A DNA stretch of 64,000 nucleotides from a virus (lineage: Duplodnaviria; Caudoviricetes). The translations under genes and the position numbers were made by a program. The stretch covers positions 1 to 64,000 of IMG/VR virus record IMGVR_UViG_3300020577_010931, one strand, 5' to 3'. Below, piece after piece: positions 152 to 61,024 of the stretch. Numbering within the stretch: the stretch's first letter is position 1; each line of letters starts with the position of its first letter. The notes beneath the pieces were generated by a model, which was not told the origin of the DNA, searched no databases, and saw only the letters and a program-made list of their open reading frames with translations.

Positions 152-464
152 AAAGGGTCGGCCTTGCAAGGTTGCAACTATATGGTGCGCGGCCCGAGTT
201 GGGGGAGCAAGCCGGGAATGGTCTTCCCATGTGGTTTAGAGACTATCGGATTAAAAACGTGATTTGGGGAGAGCGTAGAGGGTTAGAGTTGCAATGATGA
301 GGTCGTCGAGGTCCTTATTGTTGCAGGGCTGAGGTTTATGGAAATAGGTTCGGGAAAAGTCCGTGGGGGCAATGGGTTAGAGGTCAAGGGTAGGGTGGGT
401 CAGGATGGGGGAGCCGTTCAAGGTAGTGGGTGGTGGCGGTGGGGGCTGTAGGGAGGCCTCTAAA

Positions 465-522
465 TTAAAGTGTCATAGTTACTATCGTGCAATATTGCAT
501 ACTTGTAACTATGAGACTTTAA
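465..522. repeat. 18-bp inverted repeat (1 mismatch) around the palindrome TGCAATATTGCA
   Basis: TTAAAGTGTCATAGTTAC 465-482 / GTAACTATGAGACTTTAA 505-522; related TGCAAGGTTGCAACTAT at 165-181 and 627-643. Confidence 0.75.
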
Positions 523-966
523 ACCCGTGGGCTCGCTAGGTAGTGGGTTGTAAGTTGTGGAAAAAGATTTGGCTCAGACACAATAGGTAGTGGGTAGGAG
601 GTCTAGCGGAAATAGTTGTGCTACTGTGCAAGGTTGCAACTATGAGACTTATTCTGCGGGGCTATGTGACGGGTAATAAAGGAACCGTTCAAACACCCTG
701 GGACAGGAGCGACTCAGAGCTCGTCTCGAATTTCTCTGGGTCGAGATGAAACTGACGTCATCAATTTGAACTGACATTTCCATCAACATTTTTCTTCCGT
801 AATATTGAATTCAGAAACGACTATTTACCCCTGTCCCAACGAGAGAAGCAGTGCTAATGTATTTTTACCAGAAACGGTTCCCTCGCCCTTGGGACCCTCT
901 GGGTCTGCCTGCTACCGACCAAAACGAGCCCAAAGACCGTCAAAAGACGTCAAAAGGAGTGCCACC

Positions 967-2177: not shown

Positions 2178-2236
2178 TGACCTACCCGTATGAGCTCAGA
2201 CCGGCTACCCTACGGTTGCTGGCGCTTGGCCAGCGT
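2178..2236 (+). promoter_or_regulatory. Early promoter cassette copy 1
   Basis: TGACCT-N9-AGCTCA-N7-TACCCT, hairpin GCTGGC/GCCAGC, RBS GAGG. Confidence 0.75.
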
Positions 2237-2256
2237 CCAACCGAGGATGCCACCTC

Positions 2257-2655
2257 ATGTCTCGTAAATCAAAAGCGAACCTCGTTGGCGGGAGCAGCAT
2301 CTACGCGATGCAGACGCCTCCTCACGAGGCCGTCGCGGTCGCGTCGGAGCCCCGCCCATGGAACCCGACGCCTCCCCACGACGTCGACACCTACATCAAT
2401 ATGCGGGAGTTGATGACGAAGAGGGAGTTCTTGGAGTGGTGCGTCCTGCACAAACTTCGGGCTCATGGTCATCTCTGGCAGCCGATGTTCGCATACCAGG
2501 ATGGATACGAACATCGTCCTGTGGCGATCTTCATTCCGAACTACAACGCGAAGCCGACGGAAGACGGCGAGGCTCGTGGTCGCGGCATCTTCATTGACGC
2601 TCTCGGTGACCAGAAGTACGCTTCCTGGGCCGAGAAGCTGAAGGAGAACATCTGA
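2257..2655 (+). CDS. Hypothetical protein
   Basis: ATG with RBS downstream of cassette; coupled to the next gene. Confidence 0.75.
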   Translation: MSRKSKANLVGGSSIYAMQTPPHEAVAVASEPRPWNPTPPHDVDTYINMRELMTKREFLEWCVLHKLRAHGHLWQPMFAYQDGYEHRPVAIFIPNYNAKPTEDGEARGRGIFIDALGDQKYASWAEKLKENI

Positions 2656-2888
2656 TGCGTACCGTGATGGCCCACGCGACACCCGTCGAGCTGTCGAACG
2701 CGGCAGCCGACGAATTCGACAAGATCGTTGGTCTCAACCGACAGATCGCGATGAACATCCTCTCCAAAGAGGACAAGGACGATCGCATCTTCGAGATCCA
2801 GCGTCAGCTCGAGGCGACGATCCGCGAGAAGGCGTTCGAGCAGTTCCTGCTCATCCTCTGGGGTGATCTCGACCCGCCGCCGGCCTGA
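2655..2888 (+). CDS. Hypothetical helical protein
   Basis: TGATG overlap with upstream ORF. Confidence 0.7.
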   Translation: MRTVMAHATPVELSNAAADEFDKIVGLNRQIAMNILSKEDKDDRIFEIQRQLEATIREKAFEQFLLILWGDLDPPPA

Positions 2889-2903
2889 CGACTGCGACCA
2901 CTA

Positions 2904-2960
2904 TGAGCTAGCGGTAGGACCTCAGAAGCCCTACCCTAGCCGTAGTGGCAGTTTCGCCAC
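2904..2960 (+). promoter_or_regulatory. Early promoter cassette copy 2
   Basis: TGAGCT-N9-ACCTCA-N7-TACCCT, hairpin GTGGC/GCCAC, GGAG. Confidence 0.8.
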
Positions 2961-2977
2961 GGCACGGAGTACCTGAA

Positions 2978-3223
2978 ATGACCACCCAGATCACCGACCT
3001 GCGCCATCTGGCGCCGTCGACCTGCAACCTCCGCATCTTCACCGACGTGACCCCGGCCCAGGTCGGCGAGTACTGCGAGAAGAACAATCTCTCGCTCGGA
3101 TACGCGGTGTTCCCGTGGGAGGAACTCCACCACAACGAGCGGAAGGACGCCGACGGCAGGCCCGCTGTGGTCGGTATCTACTATCACAACGAGAAGATCC
3201 TCTATCTCGTGAACCAGGACTAA
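2978..3223 (+). CDS. Hypothetical protein
   Basis: GGAG then ATG at 2978. Confidence 0.75.
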   Translation: MTTQITDLRHLAPSTCNLRIFTDVTPAQVGEYCEKNNLSLGYAVFPWEELHHNERKDADGRPAVVGIYYHNEKILYLVNQD

Positions 3224-3227
3224 CGCC

Positions 3228-3569
3228 ATGACCGGCATCATCAAAGCGACGATCCTGTCGCAGCTCGCTCGCGCACCCGTCGGGGTGCGCGAGGCAGTGC
3301 GGGACCATCTCAACGGGACCTCCCGCATGCGGACCCTGGGCGAGCAGTACGAAGCCATCAAGGGCGCGTTCGGCTACGATGCGAACCAGATGCTCGCTCA
3401 TCTGCGTGGGGCGTATCTCGCGTACACCTCGATGCAGAGTGAGATGAACGAGAAGGTTGCGGCCTTCAAGTTCATGATTCAGATCTGTGAGGCCGATCTG
3501 AGGGGCGACAACGGCCTCGCCATCCAGGACCTGCGCGCAGGTCCCGAACCGAGAGGACTTCGTTCATGA
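3228..3569 (+). CDS. Hypothetical protein
   Basis: In operon; ATGA overlap with next ORF. Confidence 0.7.
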   Translation: MTGIIKATILSQLARAPVGVREAVRDHLNGTSRMRTLGEQYEAIKGAFGYDANQMLAHLRGAYLAYTSMQSEMNEKVAAFKFMIQICEADLRGDNGLAIQDLRAGPEPRGLRS

Positions 3570-3934
3570 GCAGCAACGGAACCCGTGCTAGCTGGCGTCG
3601 GTTGGCGCCAGCGGGAGCGAGCAAGGGGGACGATAAGATTCGTCCCGAGGCGTGGAAGTCTCACAACCTCTACGTGCTCAAAGACCCGAGCTCGGATACA
3701 CTCTACATTTGGAGCGAACGCATCCACAAGGTGATGCGCATCCGCGGTGAGCAGCGCGTCGTCTCCCACTACAATGCGAGGGAGAAGCCTTCCCTTGGGT
3801 CCCTGGGTGGGATGTCCTTGGTGGCGATGATCGAGTGGCAGCACTTCGATGCGCCGCACCCGAGCCCAGCCCACGGCATCAAGCAGGGACCGGGGAGCCA
3901 GTTCCTGAAGTCCAGGCCAGCTCAAGCGGTGTAA
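3566..3934 (+). CDS. Hypothetical protein
   Basis: Coupled ORF ending before a large hairpin. Confidence 0.65.
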   Translation: MSSNGTRASWRRLAPAGASKGDDKIRPEAWKSHNLYVLKDPSSDTLYIWSERIHKVMRIRGEQRVVSHYNAREKPSLGSLGGMSLVAMIEWQHFDAPHPSPAHGIKQGPGSQFLKSRPAQAV

Positions 3935-3954
3935 CAACGACGCGTTTAGGAGGC

Positions 3955-4017
3955 CCGTGGGGGCCTCCGGCTTGGCGGGTACTGCGGTAGCCCAAGCCAA
4001 GCCGGAGGCCCCCACGG
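3955..4017. repeat. Perfect 22-bp inverted repeat between convergent genes
   Basis: CCGTGGGGGCCTCCGGCTTGGC 3955-3976 / GCCAAGCCGGAGGCCCCCACGG 3996-4017. Confidence 0.85.
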
Positions 4018-4050
4018 AGCATTTGTGGTGTGGGGATGTGGTCTCAAGCC
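4017..4050. promoter_or_regulatory. Dispersed 34-bp motif, copy 1
   Basis: GAGCATTTGTGGTGTGG-N7-GTCTCAAGCC, also at 60928-60961. Confidence 0.7.
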
Positions 4051-4069
4051 CCCATGCCACTTAGCTGGC

Positions 4070-4333
4070 CTACTGTGCCAGCGAGCTTTCCCAGGGGAAG
4101 ATCATACTCATCTGGGACTCACCCTCGATACGATATCGATTACCATCCTGGTGGATGATGAAATCGAAATCGTCTGTCGCCTCAACCTGCATCGCGATAC
4201 GCTCGGTTCCAACGAAATAGAACCCGTCCGCGAGGACCTCGGTTCCATTCTCTTCGTCGGGGATCTTGACGTAGAAGGTGTCAAGGGTAGCTCGTAGTTC
4301 CCTACTCGAACCTATGTGCATGGACTGGACCAA
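4070..4333 (-). CDS. Acidic beta-rich hypothetical protein (start uncertain)
   Basis: Plausible ORF with genome-typical codon use. Confidence 0.5.
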   Translation of the reverse strand: MVQSMHIGSSRELRATLDTFYVKIPDEENGTEVLADGFYFVGTERIAMQVEATDDFDFIIHQDGNRYRIEGESQMSMIFPWESSLAQ

Positions 4334-4403
4334 CCCCCTTTCCAGATAAGTATTTTACCACCGCTGAATTCCAGGTGTTAGTCTTATAAACTCTCATCTA
4401 ATC

Positions 4404-4520
4404 TGGAACGCTTTACTTGGAGCAAAGTAACGCACTACTTGGAGTGTAGTAACGTTTTACTCAAGCGCAAGTAATAAATACTCAGGCCAAGTAACGCTTT
4501 ACTCCGCCCCAAGTAACGAC
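4404..4520. repeat. Array of AGTAA-N4/5-(T)TACT palindromic units with about 22-bp period
   Basis: AGTAA at 4426, 4448, 4470, 4490, 4512; TACT at 4414, 4436, 4458, 4479, 4500. Confidence 0.8.
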
Positions 4521-4552
4521 GCGCGTGCCTGCCGGAGCTCAATCTCCTGGGT

Positions 4553-4586
4553 CAAAAAGAGAGGGGGCGGATGCCCCCGCCCCCTC
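4553..4586 (-). terminator. Intrinsic terminator after P2
   Basis: GAGGGGGCGG/CCGCCCCCTC stem with minus-strand T tract. Confidence 0.7.
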
Positions 4587-4618
4587 AAGTCTGCCCGCCC
4601 CTGCCGATAAGGCGGGCG

Positions 4619-5560
4619 TTACGCCGCCTTCGCCGGCATCTGGTTCGCCGCGACCCGCTCGACGCACCGGAAGTTCTTGCTCGGCGCGCCGGCCACGAGG
4701 CTATGGATCCAGCCCGTGTAGGCCACCTCGTCCACCGGGTCGTACTTCGGACGGGCACCGCCCTTCACGAAGTCGTGGACGTACAGAGCGTTGAACAGGG
4801 CCTGGGCGGAGAAGATCCCGCCCTCGTTGGCCTTGCTCAGCTCGCCGGCCACCGCCGCGACCTGGCCCCACACCGACGTCGGCCGGGAGCCGTTCCCGGG
4901 CAGCGCCCGGAACATGTCGCCGCTGTTCTTGACGGCGTGGCCCGCCTTGACCGCCCGATCGAGCATCCGGAAGTTGGAGGTATCCGGCTTGTCGCGGGTC
5001 GCCTCGTTCTGGGCGCCGCGCTTGTGCGCGATCTGGTGCTTGGTCGGGTCACGCGCCTCGGGCGCCTGGAGCTTCGGGCCGGTGTCGGTGCTCTCGTCGG
5101 GCTTGTCGTCCGCCGAGCCGTCGGTGGCCGTGTTCTCCTGGGTCCCTTCGGCCGCGCCGGCCGTCTGGCCGTCGGTGCCGCTGTCGCCCTCGTGCATGCC
5201 GTTGGTCACCTCCGGGCTGTTCTCGCCGGAGGGGATGGCCGCATCGCCGCCCGCCTCGCTGTTGACGCCGCCCTGGTCGTTCTCGACGATGGCCGCGACC
5301 TGCTCCTCGGTGAGGGGCGTCGTGCCGGTCTCGGTCACCAGGATGGCGCCGCCCTGCGAGAGCGCGTCGGCGAGGTTGCCGACCTGGTCCCCGGTGATCG
5401 TCTCCGGGTGCTTCTCGAGCGACAGGGTGCTCTTGGTCTCGGTCGTGTCGGGCGCCGCCTTGGTTTCCGCCTTGGTTTCCGCCGCCGGGTGCTTCGGCTC
5501 GACGCGATGCGCCTTGCCGGAGCTGATGCCACGACCGATGTTCTGATTCGGCTTCTTCAT
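4619..5560 (-). CDS. Paralogue family member P2
   Basis: GAGGA RBS, ATG at 5560; C-terminal GNGS..SVWGQV..QALFNALYVH..PKY..YTGWI..GA..K.F.C. Confidence 0.85.
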   Translation of the reverse strand: MKKPNQNIGRGISSGKAHRVEPKHPAAETKAETKAAPDTTETKSTLSLEKHPETITGDQVGNLADALSQGGAILVTETGTTPLTEEQVAAIVENDQGGVNSEAGGDAAIPSGENSPEVTNGMHEGDSGTDGQTAGAAEGTQENTATDGSADDKPDESTDTGPKLQAPEARDPTKHQIAHKRGAQNEATRDKPDTSNFRMLDRAVKAGHAVKNSGDMFRALPGNGSRPTSVWGQVAAVAGELSKANEGGIFSAQALFNALYVHDFVKGGARPKYDPVDEVAYTGWIHSLVAGAPSKNFRCVERVAANQMPAKAA

Positions 5561-5860
5561 CGCCGTAGTTCCTCTGCTTTGGTTGTTCAACATCCGCGGC
5601 GGGGGATCCCGCCTGGGCAGTGGCGTCCGCCGTGCTGCCTTACCCCCAACGTAGGGGTTCTGACATCACAGTAAAACAGAATTTTGCTCCGTATCGCTCG
5701 CGTGTGAGCAAATAGTTGTCGGCAGATTCTGCGGACCTCAATCAACTCTGTTTGAGCTCAGGGGTAGCTGGTACCGCCTTGTTCCGAGGCAGGGTACCGC
5801 GTACCTTATACGTATGCGGTACAGCCGCCTTCGCGACTGCCGCAGTATGGGAGTAGCATC

Positions 5861-6130
5861 ATGGGACGTGAGCATCTGGTGTCAACCTCGGTCAACATCC
5901 CTGCCGAACTCCATGCTCGGGCCAAGCGCATCTTCGACGTGGTCGGTATCACCATGTCGGAGGTGATCGTCGGTCGGCTTCGCGGGTATGTCGAAGAGAC
6001 CGAGGCCGCGCTCGGCGACGACCTGAAGGCCGTGGTCGACATGGAGGCGGAGGTCGCCCTCCGTCGCAAGAAGATCAGCGAGCGGCTGGCTTCCGCCGGC
6101 GGAGTTTCCGATGGCCAAAGTCAGACGTGA
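5861..6130 (+). CDS. Ribbon-helix-helix (Arc/CopG/RelB-like) DNA-binding protein
   Basis: TSVNIPAELHARAKRIFDVVGITMSEVI strand-helix-helix pattern; GGAG RBS. Confidence 0.6.
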   Translation: MGREHLVSTSVNIPAELHARAKRIFDVVGITMSEVIVGRLRGYVEETEAALGDDLKAVVDMEAEVALRRKKISERLASAGGVSDGQSQT

Positions 6131-6368
6131 CGTGGGGGCTCTCACGTCGTACTTCAAGGCGGTCGCACTGATCGCTCTTGGAGCAGCCATCGGCGGGACG
6201 ATCATAGGTGTCTGGCAGCCCGGCTATCGTCTTCGTCCGCATGAGTCACACTGGATGACGTGTGACGAACTCAAGTGGACAGACGAGCACTCGGCCACCA
6301 GACTCCCGAGAGCCTCGTGGATGAATCAGTGTGGATACATACCGGAAGGGGTGGTTACATCAGACTGA
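6111..6368 (+). CDS. Small single-TM protein
   Basis: Hydrophobic AVALIALGAAIGGTIIGVW. Confidence 0.6.
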   Translation: MAKVRRDVGALTSYFKAVALIALGAAIGGTIIGVWQPGYRLRPHESHWMTCDELKWTDEHSATRLPRASWMNQCGYIPEGVVTSD

Positions 6369-6440
6369 ACACAATGACATTGGCCTGCGATTTCAAACCG
6401 GGCACACTTTTTATGGTGCCAACCAACGGAGTCGCAGGCC

Positions 6441-6530
6441 ATGTCTGACAGTGTCGTTCTCTTCGTCGCAACAGTGGCTGGAGTCATTGCTGCTTTCGTG
6501 CATTTCTTCATCTTCGGGGTGATGTACTGA
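6441..6530 (+). CDS. 29-aa hydrophobic peptide
   Basis: MSDSVVLFVATVAGVIAAFVHFFIFGVMY; stop overlaps next ATG. Confidence 0.5.
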   Translation: MSDSVVLFVATVAGVIAAFVHFFIFGVMY

Positions 6531-6931
6531 TGCCGACCAGCGTATTGACCCCGACGCTTCAGCTCGTGTCTCACGCGCTGGACACCTTCCGTATGGTCGT
6601 GTTCGTTCACGAACCGCTGAGAATCATGCAAGGCCTCGAGTCCTGGGCTGTCGAGGACCTCATCGAACGACACGCCGAGTGGGCTGAGAACCTCGAGGAT
6701 CCGAGCAAGCAGCCGGCCTTCGGAGTCTGGCTGGGCCAGGATTTCAGCCGGCGGAATTTCAGACTCGACACCGAGAGTGCCGTGCCGCGCTTTCTGTTTC
6801 GTATGCGAGCGTATGAGCTGATGTGGCTGGACATCCCCCAGACGAGGGGGTTCTTGATCAGGCCATGCTCAGGTCAGTATTTGAAGGCTCCGCCCGGCGA
6901 CCTCTGGGCCATCGCACTGCTCGTCGAATGA
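6530..6931 (+). CDS. Hypothetical protein
   Basis: ORF ending just before cassette copy 3. Confidence 0.65.
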   Translation: MPTSVLTPTLQLVSHALDTFRMVVFVHEPLRIMQGLESWAVEDLIERHAEWAENLEDPSKQPAFGVWLGQDFSRRNFRLDTESAVPRFLFRMRAYELMWLDIPQTRGFLIRPCSGQYLKAPPGDLWAIALLVE

Positions 6932-6937
6932 ACTGAT

Positions 6938-6994
6938 TGAGCATGCGGTATGACGTCGGTCTTGGTACCGTACACATACCGCATGCCCGCGGTT
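6938..6994 (+). promoter_or_regulatory. Early promoter cassette copy 3
   Basis: TGAGCA-N9-ACGTCG-N7-TACCGT, hairpin ACCGC/GCGGT, GGAG. Confidence 0.75.
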
Positions 6995-7010
6995 CAACTG
7001 GAGCGTTCCA

Positions 7011-7349
7011 ATGGCCTACAATGAGACCCATCGCATCGGCCCCTGGCGGACGAAGCATCACAACTTCAAGAGCGTCGTGCTCACCGTGGTGAAGGGGAAG
7101 AATCATTGCATGATCTTCCTCTGCGAGGACGACTATCACCGCACGCAGATCATGCCGCTGACGGTGGACACCCCGCACGTCCACGCGAAGAAGCCGCGGT
7201 CGGTGGTCGTGCGTAACGAGGGGAAGGCCGAGGGGTGCTACGACATGCTCCTCTGCCATAACATCGTGGAGATGGGCGACGAGGCGGTGGTCGTGAGCCG
7301 CGTCGGGTGCCGCGACCTGGTGCTTCCCATCTGCGACCTGCTCGTGTAA
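7011..7349 (+). CDS. Hypothetical protein
   Basis: GGAG RBS, ATG at 7011. Confidence 0.75.
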   Translation: MAYNETHRIGPWRTKHHNFKSVVLTVVKGKNHCMIFLCEDDYHRTQIMPLTVDTPHVHAKKPRSVVVRNEGKAEGCYDMLLCHNIVEMGDEAVVVSRVGCRDLVLPICDLLV

Positions 7350-7360
7350 CGGAGGTCAAT

Positions 7361-7738
7361 ATGTCCACTCATTGTCGCGTTGGTCGGGTGGTCTTCCCAC
7401 CCAAGGATGTGATCGGGACGCCCCGGAGCCCCGGCGTCCTTGTGTTCAGCATCTACTGTCACTTCGACGGTGACAGTGTGGGTGAGGTGCTCAAGCTCCA
7501 CTACACCGACGAGGAGCGTGTTCGTCAGCTCATCGATGGCGGTGACGTATCGCTCATCGACGCGGCCGGCTGGGAACCCTACGACCCTGAGGGGCAGCCT
7601 CACACCCAGGACTTTGCCAATTTCGGCAACGATGTTCTCGAGGGTCCGTACTTCTATCTCTTCGTCCCTGGGTACGGATGGCTTCAGAAGGGCGAGGAAG
7701 TGACGGCCAACGGCAACCCGAAGTGGGAGGCGTTCTGA
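7361..7738 (+). CDS. Conserved-looking phage hypothetical protein (SIYCHFDG motif)
   Basis: GGAGG RBS; motif recalled from small phage proteins. Confidence 0.75.
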   Translation: MSTHCRVGRVVFPPKDVIGTPRSPGVLVFSIYCHFDGDSVGEVLKLHYTDEERVRQLIDGGDVSLIDAAGWEPYDPEGQPHTQDFANFGNDVLEGPYFYLFVPGYGWLQKGEEVTANGNPKWEAF

Positions 7739-7763
7739 ACACATTGATAGTGGCAGAGCTGAT

Positions 7764-7822
7764 TGACCTAGCGGTAGGAAGTCAGTTCTGCCACTATAGC
7801 CATACCGCGCAGGGGCGCGGTG
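7764..7822 (+). promoter_or_regulatory. Early promoter cassette copy 4
   Basis: TGACCT-N9-AAGTCA-N7-CACTAT, hairpin ACCGCGC/GCGCGGT, GGAG. Confidence 0.8.
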
Positions 7823-7840
7823 AACAGAGGAGTACCCGCC

Positions 7841-8188
7841 ATGAACCGTGACTCTGGTATCTTCCCAGCGCGACGCGTCATCGCCGGCTGGACCACGAAG
7901 TACAGCCCGACGCCGCAGGACGTCGTTCTCACCATGCTGAAGTATCCCGCCGACGAGCGGCAGCTCGCGCTCGTCGTGAGCGCGCCGGACGGCGAGCGGC
8001 TCTGCACCGCCAGCGTCTGCCTGGAGGGCTTCAAGCCCTCGAAGCTCGGCGAGGTGGCGATCAAGAACTGGTCCGAGAACGAGGGGGTCTACGAGGCCCT
8101 CCTCGCGGCCAACGTCATCTACCCGGCACACGCGAAGTTCCCGACGGGCTTCGTCGAGGCCCTGATCTGCCAGCTCAAGGGGCAGTGA
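7841..8188 (+). CDS. Hypothetical protein (DUF4313-like C-terminus)
   Basis: IKNWSENEG..L..A.VI.P..TGFV...C motif. Confidence 0.65.
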   Translation: MNRDSGIFPARRVIAGWTTKYSPTPQDVVLTMLKYPADERQLALVVSAPDGERLCTASVCLEGFKPSKLGEVAIKNWSENEGVYEALLAANVIYPAHAKFPTGFVEALICQLKGQ

Positions 8189-8233
8189 CACAACAGAGGG
8201 CCTCCCTTCGGGGAGGCCATTAAGGAGGCAGTC

Positions 8234-8608
8234 ATGAGCGACGAAGTGCAGGATCCCAATCCGGAGTTCGGGCCGGTCGCGTTGGTCCCGGTGAGCCAGT
8301 GGGTCTTCAATCTCTACAGGGTCCAGTTCTGGACGGATGAGACCAAGACCCGGCTGGCTCTCGATTATCCGGTCTTCTGTCAGACGACTGATACCCATAT
8401 CAAGGGCGAAGTCGAGGATCGCTGGCCCAACGACACTGCGAAGTGGGCCTCCTGGGAAGTCGTTAAGGAGAACATCGGCAACACGAGGGTCGTGGGTCAG
8501 TTCTACAATCTTCCCATCAATGAGGATGGGTGGACCGCGGGTGAGGCCATGGCCGAGCGGCTGGGTTTCAAGGATCAATGGCGCCGCGAGCGCTTCGGGA
8601 GGATGTGA
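8234..8608 (+). CDS. Hypothetical protein
   Basis: GGAGG RBS. Confidence 0.75.
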   Translation: MSDEVQDPNPEFGPVALVPVSQWVFNLYRVQFWTDETKTRLALDYPVFCQTTDTHIKGEVEDRWPNDTAKWASWEVVKENIGNTRVVGQFYNLPINEDGWTAGEAMAERLGFKDQWRRERFGRM

Positions 8609-8946
8609 TGGGTCGCGCATATTCGGACGATGAGGAAGCCAACCTCCGGGATGAGATGAACGAGGACGCCTCGGATGAGGAGGAAGAGGAGCATCCCGAT
8701 GACGAGATGGATGACATCTATGGCCCGGACGGTGAGGTGATCTACTCGCCGTGGTACGAGGCCCAGAAGGTGGAGCGTAAGTGTCAGGGCTGCTGCTCGA
8801 TCTTCATGGGAATGCCCGACCACGGATACTGCGATCGGTGCGCTGATATCATCGAGCGAGGCGGGGAGTACCCCGTCTGTGAGGAACACGACGAGGAGTC
8901 CATGGAGGACCATCTCAAACAGAAGTATGGGGAGAGTGATCTCTGA
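8608..8946 (+). CDS. Highly acidic protein with CxxC..CxxC zinc finger
   Basis: D/E-rich N-terminus; CQGC..CDRC. Confidence 0.7.
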   Translation: MGRAYSDDEEANLRDEMNEDASDEEEEEHPDDEMDDIYGPDGEVIYSPWYEAQKVERKCQGCCSIFMGMPDHGYCDRCADIIERGGEYPVCEEHDEESMEDHLKQKYGESDL

Positions 8947-9167
8947 TGCACAGCGTCTGGGCTATGGTCGTGGCGAGCGTCCTTAACGGGACGCCCGCTA
9001 ATCCGTACACGACTCTCTTCGACGAGAGGAGCTCGTGTGAGACCGAGGCTGGGAGGATCAACGATCTTCCGCCGGAGGTTTTTCGAAATCAGACTGGTGG
9101 AGTCCTGGGATGGCGGGACACGATTGCTGTCTGTATCGAGGTCTTTCCTGAGATGCTCTCAGACTAG
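8946..9167 (+). CDS. Small exported two-Cys protein
   Basis: Hydrophobic N-terminus, F..C..C spacing. Confidence 0.6.
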   Translation: MHSVWAMVVASVLNGTPANPYTTLFDERSSCETEAGRINDLPPEVFRNQTGGVLGWRDTIAVCIEVFPEMLSD

Positions 9168-9203
9168 AGGGGCATTCTGGTAAAGTGCTCAGCGTGAGTT
9201 GAT

Positions 9204-9261
9204 TGAGCATGCGGTGTGAGCTCGCCTGTGGCACTGTACCCCTGCCGCAACAAGGCGGCAT
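9204..9261 (+). promoter_or_regulatory. Early promoter cassette copy 5
   Basis: TGAGCA-N9-AGCTCG-N7-CACTGT, hairpin TGCCGC/GCGGCA, GGAG. Confidence 0.8.
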
Positions 9262-9278
9262 CTTACGGAGATCGTATC

Positions 9279-9746
9279 GTGTCGAATTTCAGCAACGCGC
9301 ACCTCACGGCCGCCATGGCCGTCCTCTCGCAGGGCATGGCTCTCTCGGAGATCTCGGGAGACGGTTTCGTCTACAACGGTCTCAACATCCAGGAGTTGGA
9401 GGAGGATCAGCCGGGCGGCTTCCTCCTGGGTCTCCTGGAGGATGAGAAGGCCCCCTACATCGCCCGGTGCTTCAACGGCGTGACGTTGCTGCACTCGGAG
9501 ATCAAGGGCCTCAACTATCGCTACAAGGCCGCGCACCCCTCATACGAGGGGCTCCAGGATCTCGGCAAGACCATCCTGGTGGTGCGCGTCTGGGATGACG
9601 AAGATGGGGCCAACACCATCTTCGCCGTCTGGACTGATCACGAGGTGTCCCTGCCCTGGGCCGAGATGGCGGCCCACATGCAGGCGGACATCGCCAAGGA
9701 CAAGATCATGGTGCCGGTGGTCGGCACGGACGGCTTCGCCGTCTAA
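9279..9746 (+). CDS. Hypothetical protein, possible distant member of the tandem cassette family
   Basis: GGAG then GTG at 9279; weak similarity to 10611/11123. Confidence 0.7.
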   Translation: MSNFSNAHLTAAMAVLSQGMALSEISGDGFVYNGLNIQELEEDQPGGFLLGLLEDEKAPYIARCFNGVTLLHSEIKGLNYRYKAAHPSYEGLQDLGKTILVVRVWDDEDGANTIFAVWTDHEVSLPWAEMAAHMQADIAKDKIMVPVVGTDGFAV

Positions 9747-9809
9747 CCCTCAACGGCCGGCGGGAGCATCAGCTTCCGCCGGGCAACTTTCAGCTAGAGA
9801 GTATCAGAC

Positions 9810-9989
9810 GTGAACACCTTCTATCTCATCCTTCTCGTGCTCACCGGCGACGGCGGCCGAGACAGCTACGTCATCGACTACGCCTTCACCCAGGAGGACT
9901 GCCAGCGCGAGCTCGCGTCGGAGACGCCGTTCACCGAGCCGGGCAACGTGCTCGTGTGTTCCTCGAACCCCGAGGCATACGTGAACTGA
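9810..9989 (+). CDS. 59-aa exported two-Cys protein
   Basis: MNTFYLILLVL..F...C..C; below the ORF-track cutoff. Confidence 0.55.
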   Translation: MNTFYLILLVLTGDGGRDSYVIDYAFTQEDCQRELASETPFTEPGNVLVCSSNPEAYVN

Positions 9990-9990
9990 T

Positions 9991-10048
9991 TGAGCTAGCG
10001 TTGGGAGCTCATACCGGGCACGCTGGGGGCGTGGCAATAGGGCCACAT
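9991..10048 (+). promoter_or_regulatory. Early promoter cassette copy 6
   Basis: TGAGCT-N9-AGCTCA-N7-CACGCT, hairpin GTGGC/GCCAC, GGAG. Confidence 0.85.
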
Positions 10049-10064
10049 CACAGGAGTGGATATC

Positions 10065-10493
10065 ATGTACCTCGCCAAAGACGGCATCGCCATCGCCCAC
10101 TGCATCTCGATGTTCTCGTGCCTCCAGTCCCTCGAGACCGAGGATCGGGGCGTCTTCATCCAGGACTTTGAGCCGGGGCTCGCCCTGGGCCAGGAGCTCT
10201 TCGAGATGCTCGACACGATGACGCCCCCGCTCGTGCTCCAGGTCGTCGGGAATCGGGAGCTCCACTTCGACAGGCACACCGTGACCCAGATCCATGAGGG
10301 TCGCGCCATCGAGCATCCCTACGCTCTGGTCCAGGTCGCGACCATCAAGAGCGGCGTGGCTATCTCGCGTCGCTACTACGTGGTGACCCAGGGCACCACG
10401 ACGCCTCAGCGTTTCGTCGAACTGATGGCCGAGGCCAAGCTCCACAAGGGCGTCACCTGGGATGACAACCTGGTCGCCTCCTGGATCGACTAG
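10065..10493 (+). CDS. Hypothetical protein, possible tandem cassette family member
   Basis: AGGAG then ATG at 10065. Confidence 0.75.
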   Translation: MYLAKDGIAIAHCISMFSCLQSLETEDRGVFIQDFEPGLALGQELFEMLDTMTPPLVLQVVGNRELHFDRHTVTQIHEGRAIEHPYALVQVATIKSGVAISRRYYVVTQGTTTPQRFVELMAEAKLHKGVTWDDNLVASWID

Positions 10494-10500
10494 GAGAAAC

Positions 10501-10534
10501 GGCCCCGGTGTCAAACGACTCCGGGGCCTTCTTT
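10501..10534 (+). terminator. Intrinsic terminator, homologous to the one at 11014-11047
   Basis: GGCCCCGG..GTCAAACG..CCGGGGCC then TTCTTT. Confidence 0.75.
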
Positions 10535-10590
10535 GAGTTAGCGGTACGAGCTCAGGCGCGGTACGCTTGGGGCGTGGCAGAAGGCCACGC
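10534..10590 (+). promoter_or_regulatory. Early promoter cassette copy 7
   Basis: TGAGTT-N9-AGCTCA-N7-TACGCT, hairpin GCGTGGC/GCCACGC, GGAG. Confidence 0.85.
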
Positions 10591-10610
10591 GCACAACGGA
10601 GCTCAGTGTC

Positions 10611-11006
10611 ATGCAAATCAACGGTTACGCTCTCATGGCCCTCTCGTCGGTGGCGACCTCTCAGGTGGCTCTTCGTCATCTCGCTTACGGGGTGGCGGGG
10701 GAGTTCCCTGTCGCCTTTCGTATGCTGGATGTCACCGGCACGGAGCTCGTTCTCACCTACGAGCGCGGCGGGGTGTCTCACGGTAAGTCCTGGCCCAATG
10801 GCATAACGGTGGAAGTCACGCCTCTGGCCATGGTCAACAAGGACTCGGTCATCGGCATGCAGGCTCTGGTTCATATGGTCGTGTGGGTGGGGGTGCCGGA
10901 CATCGGGCGTCGCGTCTTCGTGGGGTACGCCTGGAACTCCGGCGAAATGTCGGTGGAAGATGTCCGTGCGGGGCTGGCGCGGGGCGATCTCCGGCTCGGC
11001 CTGTAG
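10611..11006 (+). CDS. Hypothetical protein, paralogue of 11123-11518
   Basis: Shared YA..ALS.V.TS..A.RH..YG, PV....DVT, WP.G, VW.GVP, DL.L. Confidence 0.8.
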   Translation: MQINGYALMALSSVATSQVALRHLAYGVAGEFPVAFRMLDVTGTELVLTYERGGVSHGKSWPNGITVEVTPLAMVNKDSVIGMQALVHMVVWVGVPDIGRRVFVGYAWNSGEMSVEDVRAGLARGDLRLGL

Positions 11007-11046
11007 TCAGCAAGGCCCTGGGTCAAACGGCTCAGGGCCTTTTCTT

Positions 11047-11104
11047 TGACCTAGCCTTACGAGCTCACATGGGGCACGGTAGGGGTGCGGCAATAGGCCC
11101 GCAT
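11047..11104 (+). promoter_or_regulatory. Early promoter cassette copy 8
   Basis: TGACCT-N9-AGCTCA-N7-CACGGT, hairpin TGCGG/CCGCA, GGAG. Confidence 0.85.
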
Positions 11105-11571: not shown

Positions 11572-11689
11572 CCTCATTCTCGTGGTCTGAGCTCATGCCT
11601 GAGGTGGAGACTGAGCTCATGTTCCTGGGCTGAGCTCGGGCGTGGACCCAGAGGAAAAATCTGCTCAGGGGAGACGAAAACGAAAAGAT

Positions 11690-11749
11690 TGAGCTGGCTA
11701 TGTGAGGTCAAGGCGCCCATAGTGATCTTGCGTTGGGGGCAATAGAGCC
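11690..11749 (+). promoter_or_regulatory. Early promoter cassette copy 9
   Basis: TGAGCT-N9-AGGTCA-N7-CATAGT, hairpin GGGGGC/GCCCCC, AGGAG. Confidence 0.75.
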
Positions 11750-11774
11750 CCCCGCCCAAGGAGTACAGAGCACC

Positions 11775-12319: not shown

Positions 12320-12645
12320 GAGCTCATTTTTCCGCCGGCTGCGATGGCCTCAGACTGAGGTTGAGGCTGAGCTCGTCTTTTGACGAAGTTGAGCTCGGTG
12401 GGCCGAAGTCAATTTCTCCGCCGGCTGCGAGGGGCTCAGACTCTCTCAATTTTTGAGCTCACGGCTGACGTCAGTTTGAGCTCCTGGGTCGAAGTCAAAA
12501 TCTCCGCCGGCTGCGAGGCGGAGCCCGGCAGGTAGAGACGCTGAGCTCGGTTTGAGCTCATTTCCGCCGGCTGCGAGGCGCTGAGCTCATTTTCTCCGCC
12601 GGCCGACTTCCCCTCAGACTCAGACTCAAATTTTTGAGCTCAAAA
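12320..12645. repeat. Non-coding array: 9x GAGCTC and 4x TCCGCCGGCTGCGA
   Basis: 14-mer at 12331, 12417, 12503, 12563 (partial 12595); GAGCTC at 12320, 12369, 12391, 12455, 12478, 12543, 12554, 12583, 12636. Confidence 0.85.
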
Positions 12646-12881
12646 CCGACTTTGACGGTTGGACCTCAAACACAACTTGGTGGTGTATTTTGAGGCCGGA
12701 CCGGGGTGGTTGCAAAACGCAACCAGTGTACAATGGTGCGGCGCACCATGGCTTATTGCCACTGCACAAATGTACAATACCCCCTGCCCCCGGCAGCGGG
12801 GTGCGCCACCATACCCCGCTGCCGGGTGCGCGTTGCATAAACCGTGCCAAGCGGGGGCAGCATAAAAACGCAAATACCCCC

Positions 12882-12937
12882 TTGGCAGGGGTGCGGGGTG
12901 CGCCTATGTAGGGGGTGCGGCCGTTGCCGCTGCCCCC
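12882..12937 (+). promoter_or_regulatory. Sigma70-like promoter of P4 with 5' hairpin
   Basis: TTGGCA-N17-TATGTA then GGGGGTGCGGC/GCCGCTGCCCCC. Confidence 0.5.
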
Positions 12938-12980
12938 GGCATGCCCGCCTGGGGTACCCCAAGCAAAGGTAGGTAACACC

Positions 12981-13625
12981 ATGGCCAAGCGTACCCCCGC
13001 CACCCCCCGCGCCACCCGCACCCCCAAGGTGGCCACCCCGGCCGCTGCCCCCGCCCCCGTGCTGGCCAGCGTGGCCAACCCGGCGCATGCCAAGGTGGCC
13101 AGCATGTTGCTGGCCAGCGCCACCCCCGGCGCCACGCTGGCCAATGCCCCCGCCACCCCGCTGCCCCCCGTGCTGGCCAGCGTGGCCACCCCGGCCGGGG
13201 TGGCGCTGCCCCCCGCCCCCAAGCATGCCGTTACCGTGGTTGCCCCGCTTGGGGTGGCCACCCGCAACGCGCCGCTGCTTAACGGGCACATGCACGCGGC
13301 CGGGGGCAAGTTGGCCACGGGCAACTTTGCGCTGCCCAATGGTAGCAACGTGCTGGTGGCAGCGGCCGGTAACGGCAGCAAAGCCGCTACCGTGTGGGGG
13401 CAGGTGGCCATTGTGGCCAAGGCACTACAGGTGGCCAGCGCCACGGGCACGTTTACGCGGCAGGCGCTTTACAATGCGCTGTATGCGCACAATTGGGCAG
13501 GGGCAGGTGTTACCCCCAAGTATACCCCCGCGCAGGCGGTAGCGTATGCGGGCTGGGTGGCCACGCTGGCAGCGGGGGCAACTGGCAAGCGTTTTAATTG
13601 CGCTGCCCCCGCCCCCAAGGCGTAA
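12981..13625 (+). CDS. Paralogue family member P4, Asp/Glu-free recoded copy of P3
   Basis: RBS AGGTAGGT, ATG at 12981, TAA stop; TVWGQV..QALYNAL.AHNW..PKYTP..AYAGW..GATGKRF.C shared with P3. Confidence 0.9.
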   Translation: MAKRTPATPRATRTPKVATPAAAPAPVLASVANPAHAKVASMLLASATPGATLANAPATPLPPVLASVATPAGVALPPAPKHAVTVVAPLGVATRNAPLLNGHMHAAGGKLATGNFALPNGSNVLVAAAGNGSKAATVWGQVAIVAKALQVASATGTFTRQALYNALYAHNWAGAGVTPKYTPAQAVAYAGWVATLAAGATGKRFNCAAPAPKA

Positions 13626-13632
13626 GGCGTGC

Positions 13633-13658
13633 GCGGGGGTGGCAGGCGCCACCCCCGC
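13633..13658 (+). terminator. GC hairpin after P4 (no U tract)
   Basis: GCGGGGGTGGC/GCCACCCCCGC. Confidence 0.5.
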
Positions 13659-13690
13659 AACACCTGCCACCCCAAGCAAAGGCCAAGGCC

Positions 13691-14008
13691 ATGCCCCGCC
13701 ACGCGCGCCCCTACACTGCCACCCGTGCCACCCGCACCCCCTGCGTGCAACGTACCGCGCACGCGCATGCCACCCTGCCCCCGCTGCCGTTGTGCCGCAC
13801 CAATGCGCGGGTGCAACGCAGTGTGGTGCGGGGCATGGCGTACGCCACCCGTGCCAAGCGTGGCGCGTTGCGCATGCCCCCGGCGCACGTTGCCGCGTAC
13901 ACGCGCGGCATGCCTGCCCCCCTGCGGCGCATGTATGCGGGTGCGTACACCCCGCACCCCCTGCCCCGTGCCATGGCATGGTGGCAGGCGGGGTACATGC
14001 CGTACTAG
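13691..14008 (+). CDS. Second island ORF, 105 aa, basic, no D/E
   Basis: Preceded by the same CCCCAAGCAAAGG leader as P4; TAG stop. Confidence 0.5.
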   Translation: MPRHARPYTATRATRTPCVQRTAHAHATLPPLPLCRTNARVQRSVVRGMAYATRAKRGALRMPPAHVAAYTRGMPAPLRRMYAGAYTPHPLPRAMAWWQAGYMPY

Positions 14009-14174
14009 CGTACGCGCGTACGCCTACCCTGTATGCTTTGCCCCCGGCGGGTGTACCGCCGGGGGCATTGCCGTACGTGTACCCCCCGGTATGGTACCTT
14101 TGCCGGGGGTATACCCCCGCCGCCGCCCGGCGCTCAGTGACTGCAGACCACAATCGATCTTTCGAAAACGGTTC

Positions 14175-14329: not shown

Positions 14330-14411
14330 CTCCGTCGAATCTAAACCGTCGAATTCACTCCGTCGAATCTAAGTCACCGAACCCACCCTCGTCGAACCCA
14401 CCCTCATCGAA
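14330..14411. repeat. Six-unit 14-15 bp degenerate tandem repeat ((T/C)CGAA core)
   Basis: Core at 14335, 14349, 14363, 14377, 14392, 14407. Confidence 0.75.
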
Positions 14412-25311: not shown

Positions 25312-25563
25312 GCCCCGGCAGCGGGTGCGGGGCGGGGGTAAAACCGCTAAGAGCCACTCCCCGCCCCGCAAATGCTCTACCAGTGCCCTACCGCCGCCCG
25401 GCTAGGCCAGTGCCCCGCCCGGCGGCGGGACTGTTTTTAGACCACGCAAACAAGTCCATGTTACGTGCTGTAACAAACGACAGACCAATTTTCGGTCAAA
25501 TTTGATACTGGCGCTGCCCCTGGAAGCCTGCTAGACTGCCTGAAGTACACTTGGAGGCAGGTC

Positions 25564-48007: not shown

Positions 48008-48146
48008 GTGGGTCCAGCCCATCATGATCGGAAACGCTGACGTTCTCACCGATCAGACGGCGTCTGAGATCGAGTCTCACAATCAGCTTTGGTCCGAAAA
48101 CTGCGCGCCTAAGCCCGCAGTGCTAGAGACCCCTCCCACGCCCTAG
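47904..48146 (+). CDS. o-spanin-like lipoprotein
   Basis: Lipobox LLSGC; out-of-frame overlap with i-spanin. Confidence 0.75.
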   Translation: MRFVLGISFPVLLSGCALLSGTGTANAPPIVSGCEWVQPIMIGNADVLTDQTASEIESHNQLWSENCAPKPAVLETPPTP

Positions 48147-48239
48147 CGCGTGTCCAGAATTGCCTCGCGCGCGTGCGCGGGGGTACCAGTGGCGGCCGGG
48201 CCGCTTGACTGCTCTAGAGCAAGCCAAGCGGCCCGATGC

Positions 48240-52746: not shown

Positions 52747-53646
52747 TTGGATCAGGTTGTGTTCGACAAAGATATGCTCGATACGGCGATCTACTATTTC
52801 AATGAACGGGAACGAATTCGACAGAAGAAGGAAGAAGGAGAGAAGTGGCCCTGGACCAAAGATCCAATCCTCCAGCAGTTCTCGTTCACGAACATCCTGC
52901 GTGAACACGACCGAACCTCCTCCTGGGCCAATCAGAACTGGTATGCTCCGCACTATGAAGCAGATCCAGCTGTTCAGCTTTTCAACTGCGGCGTGTTCCG
53001 CTATTTCGGTACGATCGAATTTGCCGAAGATCTCGGTTGGCAGGACAAGTTCGATCCGGACTATATCATCGGCACTGCTGATGAGAGAATGAAATACAAG
53101 AAGAAGGTCTTCACCGGGGCCTATGTCATTACGAACCAAGGGATCGCGAGACCGAAACAAGAAGTGGTCACAGAGATTTTCCTGAAGGGTCTCTGGGAAT
53201 CGCGCCATGCTATACTTAGTGCATACAATCGTTCCCACAAATGGGAAGACGCTGCGCGTGTTCTGATGGGAGTTGCCGGATTCGGCGGATCTGGATTCAT
53301 GGCCAAAGAGGTATTGCAGGACGCAATGTTCACAGCGGCAATGCCTCGGAACGAGGTTATCGATCGTATGTCCTGGAGTCCTGTTGGGCCAGGAGCCCAG
53401 AGAGGACTGAACCGTCTACAGGCTCGACCGCTTGATCAGAGGGTTCGAGAAGCCGATGGTATTCGGCAAATGAAGCATCTACAGTCTTGGCTTGTGGATG
53501 CGGCTGAACCTCACATGAGCATTGTTCTGGATCGGTTCGATCTCCACGCCGTCCAGTTCATCTGCTGTGAAATCGACAAGTACGTTCGCGTACGCAACGG
53601 CGAGGGACGTCCACGACAGACGTATCGCCAGGGAAGACACGCATGA
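52747..53646 (+). CDS. 5-hmdU DNA kinase (HMUDK helical / aGPT-Pplase1 family)
   Basis: ERERIR..KE.G..WPWT.DPIL..F.FTN..RE.DR; GPGA.RGLNR; CE.DKY.R. Confidence 0.82.
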   Translation: MDQVVFDKDMLDTAIYYFNERERIRQKKEEGEKWPWTKDPILQQFSFTNILREHDRTSSWANQNWYAPHYEADPAVQLFNCGVFRYFGTIEFAEDLGWQDKFDPDYIIGTADERMKYKKKVFTGAYVITNQGIARPKQEVVTEIFLKGLWESRHAILSAYNRSHKWEDAARVLMGVAGFGGSGFMAKEVLQDAMFTAAMPRNEVIDRMSWSPVGPGAQRGLNRLQARPLDQRVREADGIRQMKHLQSWLVDAAEPHMSIVLDRFDLHAVQFICCEIDKYVRVRNGEGRPRQTYRQGRHA

Positions 53647-55016: not shown

Positions 55017-56015
55017 GTGATGGGAGTAGAAAGCGCGTACTCGACACGCAACGTCAACACGGGATTCTTCACACTCTACAATGCGATCCAGAAGGAGGGC
55101 CTCCCTTCCGATAGTCGCAACGGTCCGGTGCTTCGCTGGCCGACTCCGATCATCGTGACCTACGAGAATCCCTGTGAACGAGTTCTCTTCGACGAGACTC
55201 GAGATCACAACTACTTCTTCGCATTCTTTGAGTCTCTCTGGATGCTCGCAGGTCGGGACGATCTGGAGTTCCTGAGTCTCTTCAACAAGAATATGGCGAA
55301 CTACTCGGATGACGGGAAGCTCATTCGTGGTTCGGCGTATGGACGGAGATGGAGAGACTGGTTCGGCTACGATCAAATTTCACACGTCATCCATGAGCTC
55401 CAGGACAATCCCACTTCTCGTCGCTGTGTTCTGACGATGTGGGATGCGACGAGCGATCCTCTCGTCAGCAGCAAAGACATCCCCTGCAATACTCAGGCGT
55501 ATGTCGAAGTGGACAATTGGGGTGAGGTCAATCTCACTGTCCTGAATCGTTCCAACGATCTTGTGTACGGGATGTTCGGCAGCAACGCTGTCCACTTCAG
55601 TTTCCTTCTGGAGTACATCGCAGCAAACCTTGGGCGCAAGGTCGGTGTCTATCATCAATTCTCCAACAATCTCCATCTCTACACTGACTTTCCAATCACG
55701 AAGAAGATCGGTCCCCGTGTTGAAGTCGACGATCCGTATTCAGATGGACGAGTGTCGACATTCCCTATGTTCCGGAGAGGAGATGAAGATGAGCTCCGGG
55801 ACTGGGATATCGATCTTCAGCGGAGTTTCGATCTCTCCTGGGGCAAGTTCGAAACGGAATTCTTCTGCGAAGTTGTGCATCCCATGAGAGAGACGCATCG
55901 ACTTTATCGTATGAAGAAATACGATGAAGCTCTCGCAACATGCGAGAAAATCAAGGCCACCGACATTCGCTACAATGCGAGGGAGTGGCTCAACAGAAGG
56001 ATCACGAAACGGTGA
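55017..56015 (+). CDS. Thymidylate synthase homologue, probable dUMP hydroxymethylase
   Basis: PCN catalytic Cys, RSND...N (Asn = dUMP specificity), NLHLY. Confidence 0.85.
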   Translation: MMGVESAYSTRNVNTGFFTLYNAIQKEGLPSDSRNGPVLRWPTPIIVTYENPCERVLFDETRDHNYFFAFFESLWMLAGRDDLEFLSLFNKNMANYSDDGKLIRGSAYGRRWRDWFGYDQISHVIHELQDNPTSRRCVLTMWDATSDPLVSSKDIPCNTQAYVEVDNWGEVNLTVLNRSNDLVYGMFGSNAVHFSFLLEYIAANLGRKVGVYHQFSNNLHLYTDFPITKKIGPRVEVDDPYSDGRVSTFPMFRRGDEDELRDWDIDLQRSFDLSWGKFETEFFCEVVHPMRETHRLYRMKKYDEALATCEKIKATDIRYNAREWLNRRITKR

Positions 56016-60857: not shown

Positions 60858-60927
60858 CGGTGGCTCCCTACTGGTCGTGCATGGGGCCGCTGCCCTACCC
60901 TAGCCGGGTGGCGCAAGGGGCAAGGTA

Positions 60928-60961
60928 GAGCATTTGTGGTGTGGCGACAGTGTCTCAAGCC
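60928..60961. promoter_or_regulatory. Dispersed 34-bp motif, copy 2
   Basis: Identical flanks to 4017-4050. Confidence 0.7.
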
Positions 60962-61024
60962 TTTGGCACGCCTAGCATTTTGCCCCATGTGCTTTACGAT
61001 GTCTTTTTTCTACATGGAGCCATC

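Follow-up and report, generated by a model that had tools for sequence, protein, structure and literature searches.

The uncultured virus record IMGVR_UViG_3300020577_010931 is linear, 90,950 bp long and estimated to be 78% complete; the window analyzed here is its first 64 kb (64,000 nucleotides, nt). Rough gene calls based on open reading frames (ORFs) gave 112 genes, with 86% of the record coding. By gene content the virus is a siphovirus, encoding tape-measure, J-like tail, major head, portal and terminase proteins, and it carries a replication and nucleotide module that includes Pam3 gp33/gp34-like proteins and a family A DNA polymerase with 39% identity to those of YuA/M6-like Pseudomonas and Bordetella phages. 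Its early region contains nine cassettes in which a dyad is followed by a -10-like hexamer, a leader hairpin and a ribosome-binding site. An initial annotation of the window had pointed out that, in eight of the nine, the DNA just after the dyad lacks the dinucleotide step GA/TC (GA on one strand, TC on the other). Our analysis supports the conclusion that such GA/TC-free patches are non-random, specific to this step and confined to non-coding DNA (Table 1).

The register of the cassettes is fixed across the nine aligned copies: TTGA(G/C)C, nine bases, a GAGCTC-like half-site, eight bases and a hexamer of the form YACNNT, after which come the hairpin, a GGAG ribosome-binding site and the start codon. 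The hexamer reads TACCCT (twice), TACCGT, CACTAT, CACTGT, CACGCT, TACGCT, CACGGT or CATAGT. Its A (column 48) and T (column 52) are invariant in all nine copies, and no copy has a C after this T, which is at the presumed -7 position. The stem of the leader hairpin differs in every cassette; RNAalifold returned no consensus structure for the nine leaders because the hairpins do not align, and they are visible in single-sequence folds. GA/TC is invariant at three places within the dyad, and between the dyad's end and the distal side of the hairpin it hardly occurs. Each free run starts with the final base of the GAGCTC-like half of the dyad or 4-5 nt downstream of it, and stops 17-31 nt ahead of the start codon, just before GGAG. 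Within the eight free-zone copies, the rare GA or TC is found only in hairpin loops or in the first 5 nt after the dyad. The runs cover the -10-like hexamer and all or part of the hairpin in eight copies, as first described. Copy 9 is indeed exceptional: its hexamer is directly followed by GATC, and no free run in it exceeds 19 nt. The word GAGCTC is itself over-represented in the window (62 sites vs 36±6); 33 of the 62 lie in the first 12.7 kb, with arrays at 2110-2197, 11589-11637 and 12320-12641.

All eight cassette patches proposed by the initial annotation are exact maximal GA/TC-free runs, the four further patches it listed match to within 1-2 nt (5787-5831, 25377-25429, 48166-48207 and 60876-60928), and all twelve stretches fall outside the gene calls. 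It had also proposed comparing run lengths with a Markov null. We did so for 12,562 nt of intergenic DNA from the whole record, leaving out a 1435-nt island described below, with first- and second-order Markov models fitted to the same DNA and 300 simulations. Under both models, runs of at least 28 nt were seen 33 times vs 9.7±3.0 expected, and runs of at least 35 nt 21 times vs 2.3±1.4 expected, and none of the 300 simulations reached either count. The intergenic runs are thus in 3- to 9-fold excess, and the excess is specific to GA/TC. None of the control pairs AG/CT, AC/GT, CA/TG, GG/CC and AA/TT gave a comparable result, GG/CC being mildly high at 28 nt or more (41 vs approximately 29-30 expected, P = 0.02-0.03). 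The mirror pair AG/CT, which has the same base composition and the same symmetry in hairpin arms, gave 9 runs of at least 28 nt and 5 of at least 35 nt. The difference between the two pairs at 28 nt or more (33 vs 9, binomial P = 1.4e-4) persists when the cassettes are counted once (26 vs 9, P = 0.003), and AG and CT occur 121 times inside the 33 GA/TC-free patches, whose GC content is 66%. In the genome as a whole, 33 of the 37 runs of at least 28 nt are located in intergenic DNA, which makes up 14% of the sequence (P = 3e-24). A meta-profile of GA/TC density against distance from start and stop codons gave a shallow dip at -31 to -70 and no sharp positional signal, and word enrichment in intergenic DNA returned mostly TGAGCTC and stop-codon-rich words, with no additional promoter motif.

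In genes the picture is reversed. Overall, no dinucleotides are more over-represented than GA and TC (observed/expected 1.39 and 1.47), and 40% of the T in the window (5,778 of 14,328) are followed by C. Only 4 coding runs reach 28 nt, vs 13 expected from plain or 3-periodic Markov models and 42 when codons were shuffled within genes. Over the whole record, the coding GA/TC count is 14,321 vs 12,435±42 after codon shuffling, and the excess is located at codon junctions (observed/expected 1.37 for GA and 1.76 for TC); control pairs in coding DNA deviate only mildly. The coding excess and even spread, together with the intergenic runs, indicate a step that is enriched in genes and locally purged from non-coding DNA. 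The enrichment of TC at synonymous and junction positions led us to reject its mutational decay, by analogy with the loss of the CpG (cytosine-guanine) dinucleotide, as an explanation.

The initial annotation had cautioned that shared ancestry of the cassettes reduces their independence. The 44 nt after the dyad have a mean identity of 40% among the nine copies (range 20-75%), with cassettes 6-8 up to 75% identical. When we simulated star-tree descent of the copies, each diverging by 30-40% from an ancestor free of GA/TC, the chance that eight of nine copies keep a run of at least 28 nt was P = 1e-5 to 3e-7. Ancestry does not, therefore, explain the pattern; the copies have diverged without gaining GA/TC, which argues for purifying selection rather than inheritance.

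Table 1. Positions of the cassettes, other GA/TC-free patches and candidate modification genes in the window
Feature	Position	Strand	Details
Cassette 1 micro-island	2200..2236	+	37 nt; dyad 2177-2197; TACCCT 2206-2211; hairpin GCTGGC/GCCAGC; ends 21 nt before ATG 2257
Cassette 2 micro-island	2926..2954	+	29 nt; dyad 2903-2923; TACCCT 2932-2937; ends at hairpin-loop TC
Cassette 3 micro-island	6961..6994	+	34 nt; dyad 6937-6957; TACCGT 6966-6971; hairpin ACCGC/GCGGT
Cassette 4 micro-island	7788..7822	+	35 nt; dyad 7763-7783; CACTAT 7792-7797; hairpin ACCGCGC/GCGCGGT
Cassette 5 micro-island	9223..9261	+	39 nt from last C of GAGCTC; dyad 9203-9223; CACTGT 9232-9237; hairpin GCCGC/GCGGC
Cassette 6 micro-island	10010..10048	+	39 nt; dyad 9990-10010; CACGCT 10019-10024; hairpin GTGGC/GCCAC
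Cassette 7 micro-island	10553..10580	+	28 nt; dyad 10533-10553; TACGCT 10562-10567; ends at hairpin-loop GA
Cassette 8 micro-island	11066..11104	+	39 nt; dyad 11046-11066; CACGGT 11075-11080; hairpin TGCGG/CCGCA; likely start GTG 11121
Cassette 9 (exception)	11689..11774	+	dyad 11689-11709; CATAGT 11718-11723, then GATC; GA in hairpin loop; putative promoter of paralogue gene 11775-12260
Left non-coding arm patches	159..644	.	runs 159-196, 419-453, 486-513, 534-560, 610-644
Convergent-gene gap patches	3967..4083	.	runs 3967-4005, 4045-4083; strongly structured; 3967-4005 terminator-type hairpin
Hairpin patch	5787..5831	+	45 nt; long near-perfect hairpin; 30 nt before ATG 5861; divergent control region
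Small patch	6394..6429	+	36 nt; hairpin GGGCAC/GTGCC directly before GGAG and ATG 6441 (uncalled small ORF)
Large island	12700..14134	+	1435 nt; zero GA/TC
Two GC-rich terminator-type hairpins	25312..25429	+	runs 25312-25351, 25377-25429; after gene 24634-25311; few GA/TC in loop and spacer
Terminator-type GC-rich hairpins	48097..48207	.	runs 48097-48126, 48166-48207; between convergent genes
5-hmdU DNA kinase homologue	52747..53646	+	PF18723 HMUDK_hel; E 1.9e-35; 123 bits, cut-off 25
Thymidylate-synthase family protein, candidate dUMP hydroxymethylase	55020..56015	+	PF00303; E 9.7e-21
Pre-gene patches	60876..60998	+	runs 60876-60928, 60956-60998; ahead of gene 61025

Besides the eight cassettes, approximately seven patches have their ends 27-44 nt ahead of a start codon; another six or seven are hairpins of terminator type, and four lie in repeats of the left arm. 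In several of the upstream patches a good -10 hexamer precedes a hairpin, examples in the full record being 83974 and, on the minus strand, 76455 and 82739. The run at 60876-60928 holds CCCTACCCTAGCC, which is also the -10 core sequence of cassette 2. The divergent control region near 5787-5831 holds additional patches at 5627-5659 and 5759-5783. Among the terminator-type hairpins, 25377-25429 folds at -30 kcal/mol and is followed by TGTTTTT (ACTGTTTTTAGA), and 48166-48207 folds at -20 kcal/mol with no clear T run after it. Scans of the window for transfer RNAs and Rfam families found nothing, which means that the patches do not belong to known RNA genes. The initial annotation had proposed that the constraint acts wherever DNA must be opened or read by host proteins. 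This is partly supported. Its wider part, in which regulatory DNA in general lacks GA/TC, is better supported than the narrower focus on melting, as the patches are not limited to melting or start regions and include terminator-type hairpins and repeats.

The large island has an apparent extended -10, TGTACAAT, with TG at 12727-12728 and TACAAT at 12729-12734, and encodes paralogues of the proteins downstream of the cassettes (family D8). Its ribosome-binding sites (12960-12980 and 13670-13690) are of the AAGG type, as opposed to GGAG before the cassette genes. The island's Shine-Dalgarno sequence thus also avoids GA, as does that of a distant relative, L003 (AAGGGG vs AGGAG). At the left end, the non-coding arm (1-960, nearly 1 kb) contains AGGTAGTGGGT four times and a TTGCAACTAT-like word three times, and may act as an origin or as a group of very early promoters. 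An element of approximately 35 nt (GAGCATTTGTGGTGTGG...TCTCAAGCC) occurs at 4020-4052 and again at 60927-60964, each copy between two GA/TC-free runs; it has no Rfam match.

The record encodes a homologue of the 5-hydroxymethyldeoxyuridine (5-hmdU) DNA kinase and a candidate deoxyuridine monophosphate (dUMP) hydroxymethylase (Table 1). Homologues of the kinase were found by tblastn in 97 phage records, YuA/M6-like for the most part. A hypermodification system of this kind also includes a transferase that exchanges the phosphate for the final adduct, and the neighbors of the two genes (53643-54965 and 56508-57059) gave no Pfam or PHROG match. In phages with this pathway, only part of the T is marked, in sequence-specific contexts, with up to half of thymidines hypermodified in M6 and ViI (PMC8989533). 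The resistant restriction sites of M6, ViI and PhiW-14 share TG/TC (PMC6449724), marking in SH-Ab 15599 favors TG over TC (PMC13458397), and a phage T-dioxygenase prefers NTC (PMC13229309). Given this published context-specificity, and since 40% of T here is followed by C, we read TC as the probable marked context and the patches as probable unmarked windows. Effects on transcription have also been described. Kinase treatment of a hydroxymethyluracil template reduced the output of E. coli RNA polymerase to 37% (PMC6457204), and bulky 5-substituents on U block bacterial transcription, as does uracil in place of thymine, with U at -7 discussed (PMC4838386).

With moderate confidence, we favor the reading that TC is the context of 5-hmdU-kinase-dependent thymidine hypermodification and that regulatory DNA has been purged of it. 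A bulky adduct would be placed through the kinase pathway on T wherever C follows, and genes saturated with TC/GA would gain nearly gap-free protection. Non-coding elements that host proteins read as ordinary DNA would be under purifying selection against the step, keeping their thymines canonical. Among such elements would be the start region of each of the nine early cassettes together with its -10-like hexamer and leader hairpin, several other 5' leaders, and the stems of certain terminators. The dyad, with its three conserved GA/TC steps per cassette, would take the place of the -35 element. The consensus -35 sequence TTGACA necessarily contains GA, which may be why the cassettes use a dyad and the island an extended -10. 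The run statistics, the cassette anatomy and the enzyme genes are observed; inferred are the modification of T in the TC context, a promoter role of the cassettes with host RNA polymerase as their reader, and a disturbance of that role by the adduct. As in the -10 hexamer of sigma-70-type promoters, A at position 2 and T at position 6 are present in all nine cassettes. A sigma-54 reading of GGCAC...TGC was rejected by hand, the spacing being two bases off. No sigma-70 region 2 profile was matched in the record, and the profile of single-subunit RNA polymerase (PF00940) had no match in this record, estimated at 78% completeness, and none in the control genomes either. From the sequence, the promoter reading appears to hold for the cassette family and is plausible for several other sites; as a general rule it is unproven.

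Close relatives of this virus were not recovered: neither 12 kb of the early region nor the island matched any sequence in a nucleotide search of a phage collection, scans of viral contigs with the portal protein found no close relative, and a scan with a degenerate dyad pattern gave five single matches, probably by chance. We compared contigs of five distant relatives obtained through the portal protein (L003, L007, L010, L017 and L018), together with M6. Two of them show the signal. In L003 (portal 43% identical, GC 49%), six intergenic runs of at least 35 nt were found vs 1.5 expected, an excess specific to GA/TC. L003 has its own near-GA/TC-free island around a homologous small gene and, in one example, a unit of dyad, TACTAT and hairpin within a 41-nt free run. 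L010 (a 132-kb contig, GC 61%) also has an intergenic excess specific to GA/TC (9 vs 2.7 expected, P < 0.003). No GA/TC-specific intergenic excess was detected in L007, L017 or L018. The absence of the signal from these three relatives and from M6 indicates that it is not a general property of phage intergenic DNA. Separately, L010 contains GA/TC-free intergenic arrays of GTTAAC/GGTTAA words (3590-3860 and 6936-7120), which hold CCCTACCC-like words resembling the cassette hexamer region. The saturation of coding DNA with GA/TC is seen in weaker form in M6 and L003 and hardly at all in L007 and L010.

Several results weigh against the hypermodification reading. M6, a known hypermodified phage, has no GA/TC-specific intergenic signal; its intergenic gaps are few and lack several classes of step together (GA/TC, CA/TG, GG/CC, CG and GC). 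Some promoter-like sites of L003 have TC in the spacer or GA in the hexamer. A scan of the cassettes for the sigma-70 consensus (-35 TTGACA, a 16-18 nt spacer and -10 TATAAT) found none, TTGA(G/C)C being located 23 nt upstream of the hexamer. TATAAT-like hexamers upstream of genes are not in significantly longer runs than matched hexamers (median 18 vs 15 nt, P = 0.09). Both the kinase context proposed for this uncultured phage, read from a sequence signature, and the cassette start sites are predictions. Terminator hairpins act as RNA, and a mark on the DNA there should matter little. The GC-rich terminator and hairpin patches are also the least surprising statistically, with permutation p values of 0.03-0.04 vs 0.0005-0.01 for the others. 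Finally, a generous counterfactual null, in which all intergenic DNA is given 66% GC and GA/TC at observed/expected 1, expects 34.7 runs of at least 28 nt, leaving no excess in that class and an excess only at 35 nt or more (21 vs 12.6, P = 0.016). This null is at odds with the real intergenic GA/TC density of 0.149; a two-component mixture that reproduces that density expects 18.4 and 6.7 runs of at least 28 and 35 nt (P = 1e-3 and 7e-6). In terms of the same-GC comparison that the initial annotation had set for its own claim, runs of at least 28 nt are in excess under the fitted Markov and mixture nulls and not under the generous one, and runs of at least 35 nt are in excess under all of them. 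With the 28-nt class explained by the generous null, the 35-nt class unexplained by it and the mixture intermediate, we regard the effect as real but moderate.

It is also conceivable, if doubtful, that the cassettes are promoters patterned by the modification itself, with hypermodified T in the three invariant GA/TC steps of the dyad read by a phage regulator, as a substitute for a -35 element, and the polymerase core left unmarked. Candidate regulators would be, for example, the paralogous small proteins encoded at 967-1923, 11775-12260 or 12981-13625. Were this true, promoter activity would be set by whether the template is incoming and modified or newly replicated and still unmodified, a temporal switch written in dinucleotides, and copy 9, with GATC after its hexamer, would respond in the opposite way.

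A different agent could be responsible, such as a nuclease or other DNA-acting protein, for instance one that cuts or nicks single-stranded or unmodified DNA at TC, or a mark of another kind at GA, for example on the purine; 7-deazaguanine has been reported in this context for some phages. The run analysis cannot separate TC from GA on the opposite strand, or a mark from a cut; the incomplete record may lack genes, and the patches include elements that would be melted or extruded. Target avoidance would, however, produce the opposite of the 1.4- to 1.5-fold enrichment and even spread of GA/TC found in genes, and the module actually present is a complete-looking 5-hmdU pathway. A search for TGT/DpdA, positive in 14 of 14 control genomes, found no match, which weakens the alternative of a purine mark, though the record is incomplete. 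We think such an agent unlikely.

Could the patches instead be a by-product, with conserved motifs and GC-rich hairpins that are free of the step by chance, lengthened by stem symmetry and multiplied by cassette duplication? The generous null does reproduce the number of runs of at least 28 nt, the GC-rich terminator patches have only marginal permutation p values, cassettes 6-8 are similar to one another, and the patches have slightly more structure than controls matched for GC (z -1.0 vs -0.5, P = 0.03). Composition and stem symmetry, however, apply equally to AG/CT, which forms far fewer runs and is common inside the patches, and the excess of runs of at least 35 nt survives every null. The cassette copies have fallen to 40% identity without gaining the step, the same genome holds the 1435-nt island with none, and a GA/TC-specific signal is present in two relatives and absent from three. 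Taken together, these results make a chance origin improbable.

A positive function is possible as well, in that the patches might be unmodified sites at which phage proteins restricted to ordinary DNA, such as the products of the island, could bind. Patches are indeed found in the left-arm repeats and beside the GAGCTC arrays, L010 has its GA/TC-free arrays of GTTAAC-type words, and the island encodes the D8 paralogues. The patches, on the other hand, share no common sequence word, and the best-conserved positions of the cassette patches are the A and T of the -10-like hexamer, so we consider this quite improbable. A constraint at the RNA level, with leader and terminator hairpin transcripts avoiding GA/UC, for instance because of an endoribonuclease, is very improbable: many patches are predicted transcribed hairpins at the 5' or 3' ends of genes and the virus carries an RNA-related gene (a Ro60/TROVE protein), but GA and TC are both missing from unpaired parts too, pointing to a duplex-symmetric cause, the exceptions are located in hairpin loops, where an RNA is most accessible, the free zone begins at the dyad, upstream of any plausible start site, and coding RNA is full of GA/UC.

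The hypermodification reading has parallels in known systems. Vertebrate CpG islands are promoter-associated stretches of approximately 1 kb that are rich in the dinucleotide and escape modification by protection from the enzyme. As there, a genome-wide modification tied to a dinucleotide would leave promoter-associated islands that can be read from the sequence; here, in contrast, the patches would escape by lacking the dinucleotide, are 30-50 nt long, and the mark would serve defence rather than regulation. Avoidance of restriction sites and other short words in phage genomes is likewise selection on a very short word that departs from Markov expectation, whereas GA/TC here is enriched and even over 86% of the genome and avoided only in short patches and one island. 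The closest resemblance is to the 5-hmdU hypermodification of Pseudomonas phage M6, Salmonella phage ViI, Delftia phage PhiW-14, Bacillus phage SP10 and Acinetobacter phage SH-Ab 15599, with which this virus shares kinase and thymidylate-synthase homologues, a polymerase of the YuA/M6 group and, if TC is marked, a partial marking of T chosen by the next base, the 40% of T in TC falling within the published "up to half". It differs in that the context suggested here is TC alone, as opposed to TG/TC or TG more than TC. In the literature, we found no description of promoter or intergenic exemption from hypermodification, and the words "promoter" and "intergenic" do not occur in PMC13458397. The in vitro RNA polymerase work of the Hocek and Krasny laboratories (PMC4838386, PMC6457204) supplies the mechanism assumed here; its templates are artificial and modified at every T, and they show sensitivity, not the shaping of a genome.

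Should TC prove to be the modified context, sequence alone could reveal the target of an uncharacterised hypermodification pathway, through a search for the dinucleotide that is saturated in genes and locally purged in control DNA. The phage would then pay for the protection of its DNA with small unprotected windows where host polymerase works. Such windows would be predicted weak points for restriction enzymes or for targeting by CRISPR (clustered regularly interspaced short palindromic repeats) systems, and would be useful as promoter and terminator markers in uncultured phages.

Other features of the window were also noted. The gene at 61025-61489 encodes a homologue of pyrimidine-dimer DNA glycosylase (PF03013, E 7.8e-18), a pyrimidine-repair enzyme in a phage with thymine-modification genes. 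A near-perfect tandem duplication of approximately 86 nt (48322-48486) extends across the 5' end of the minus-strand ORF 48240-48407 into the adjoining gap, and tandem repeats of 14 nt (CCGTCGAATCTAA-like, three to four copies, 14330-14385) are located just upstream of the portal gene.

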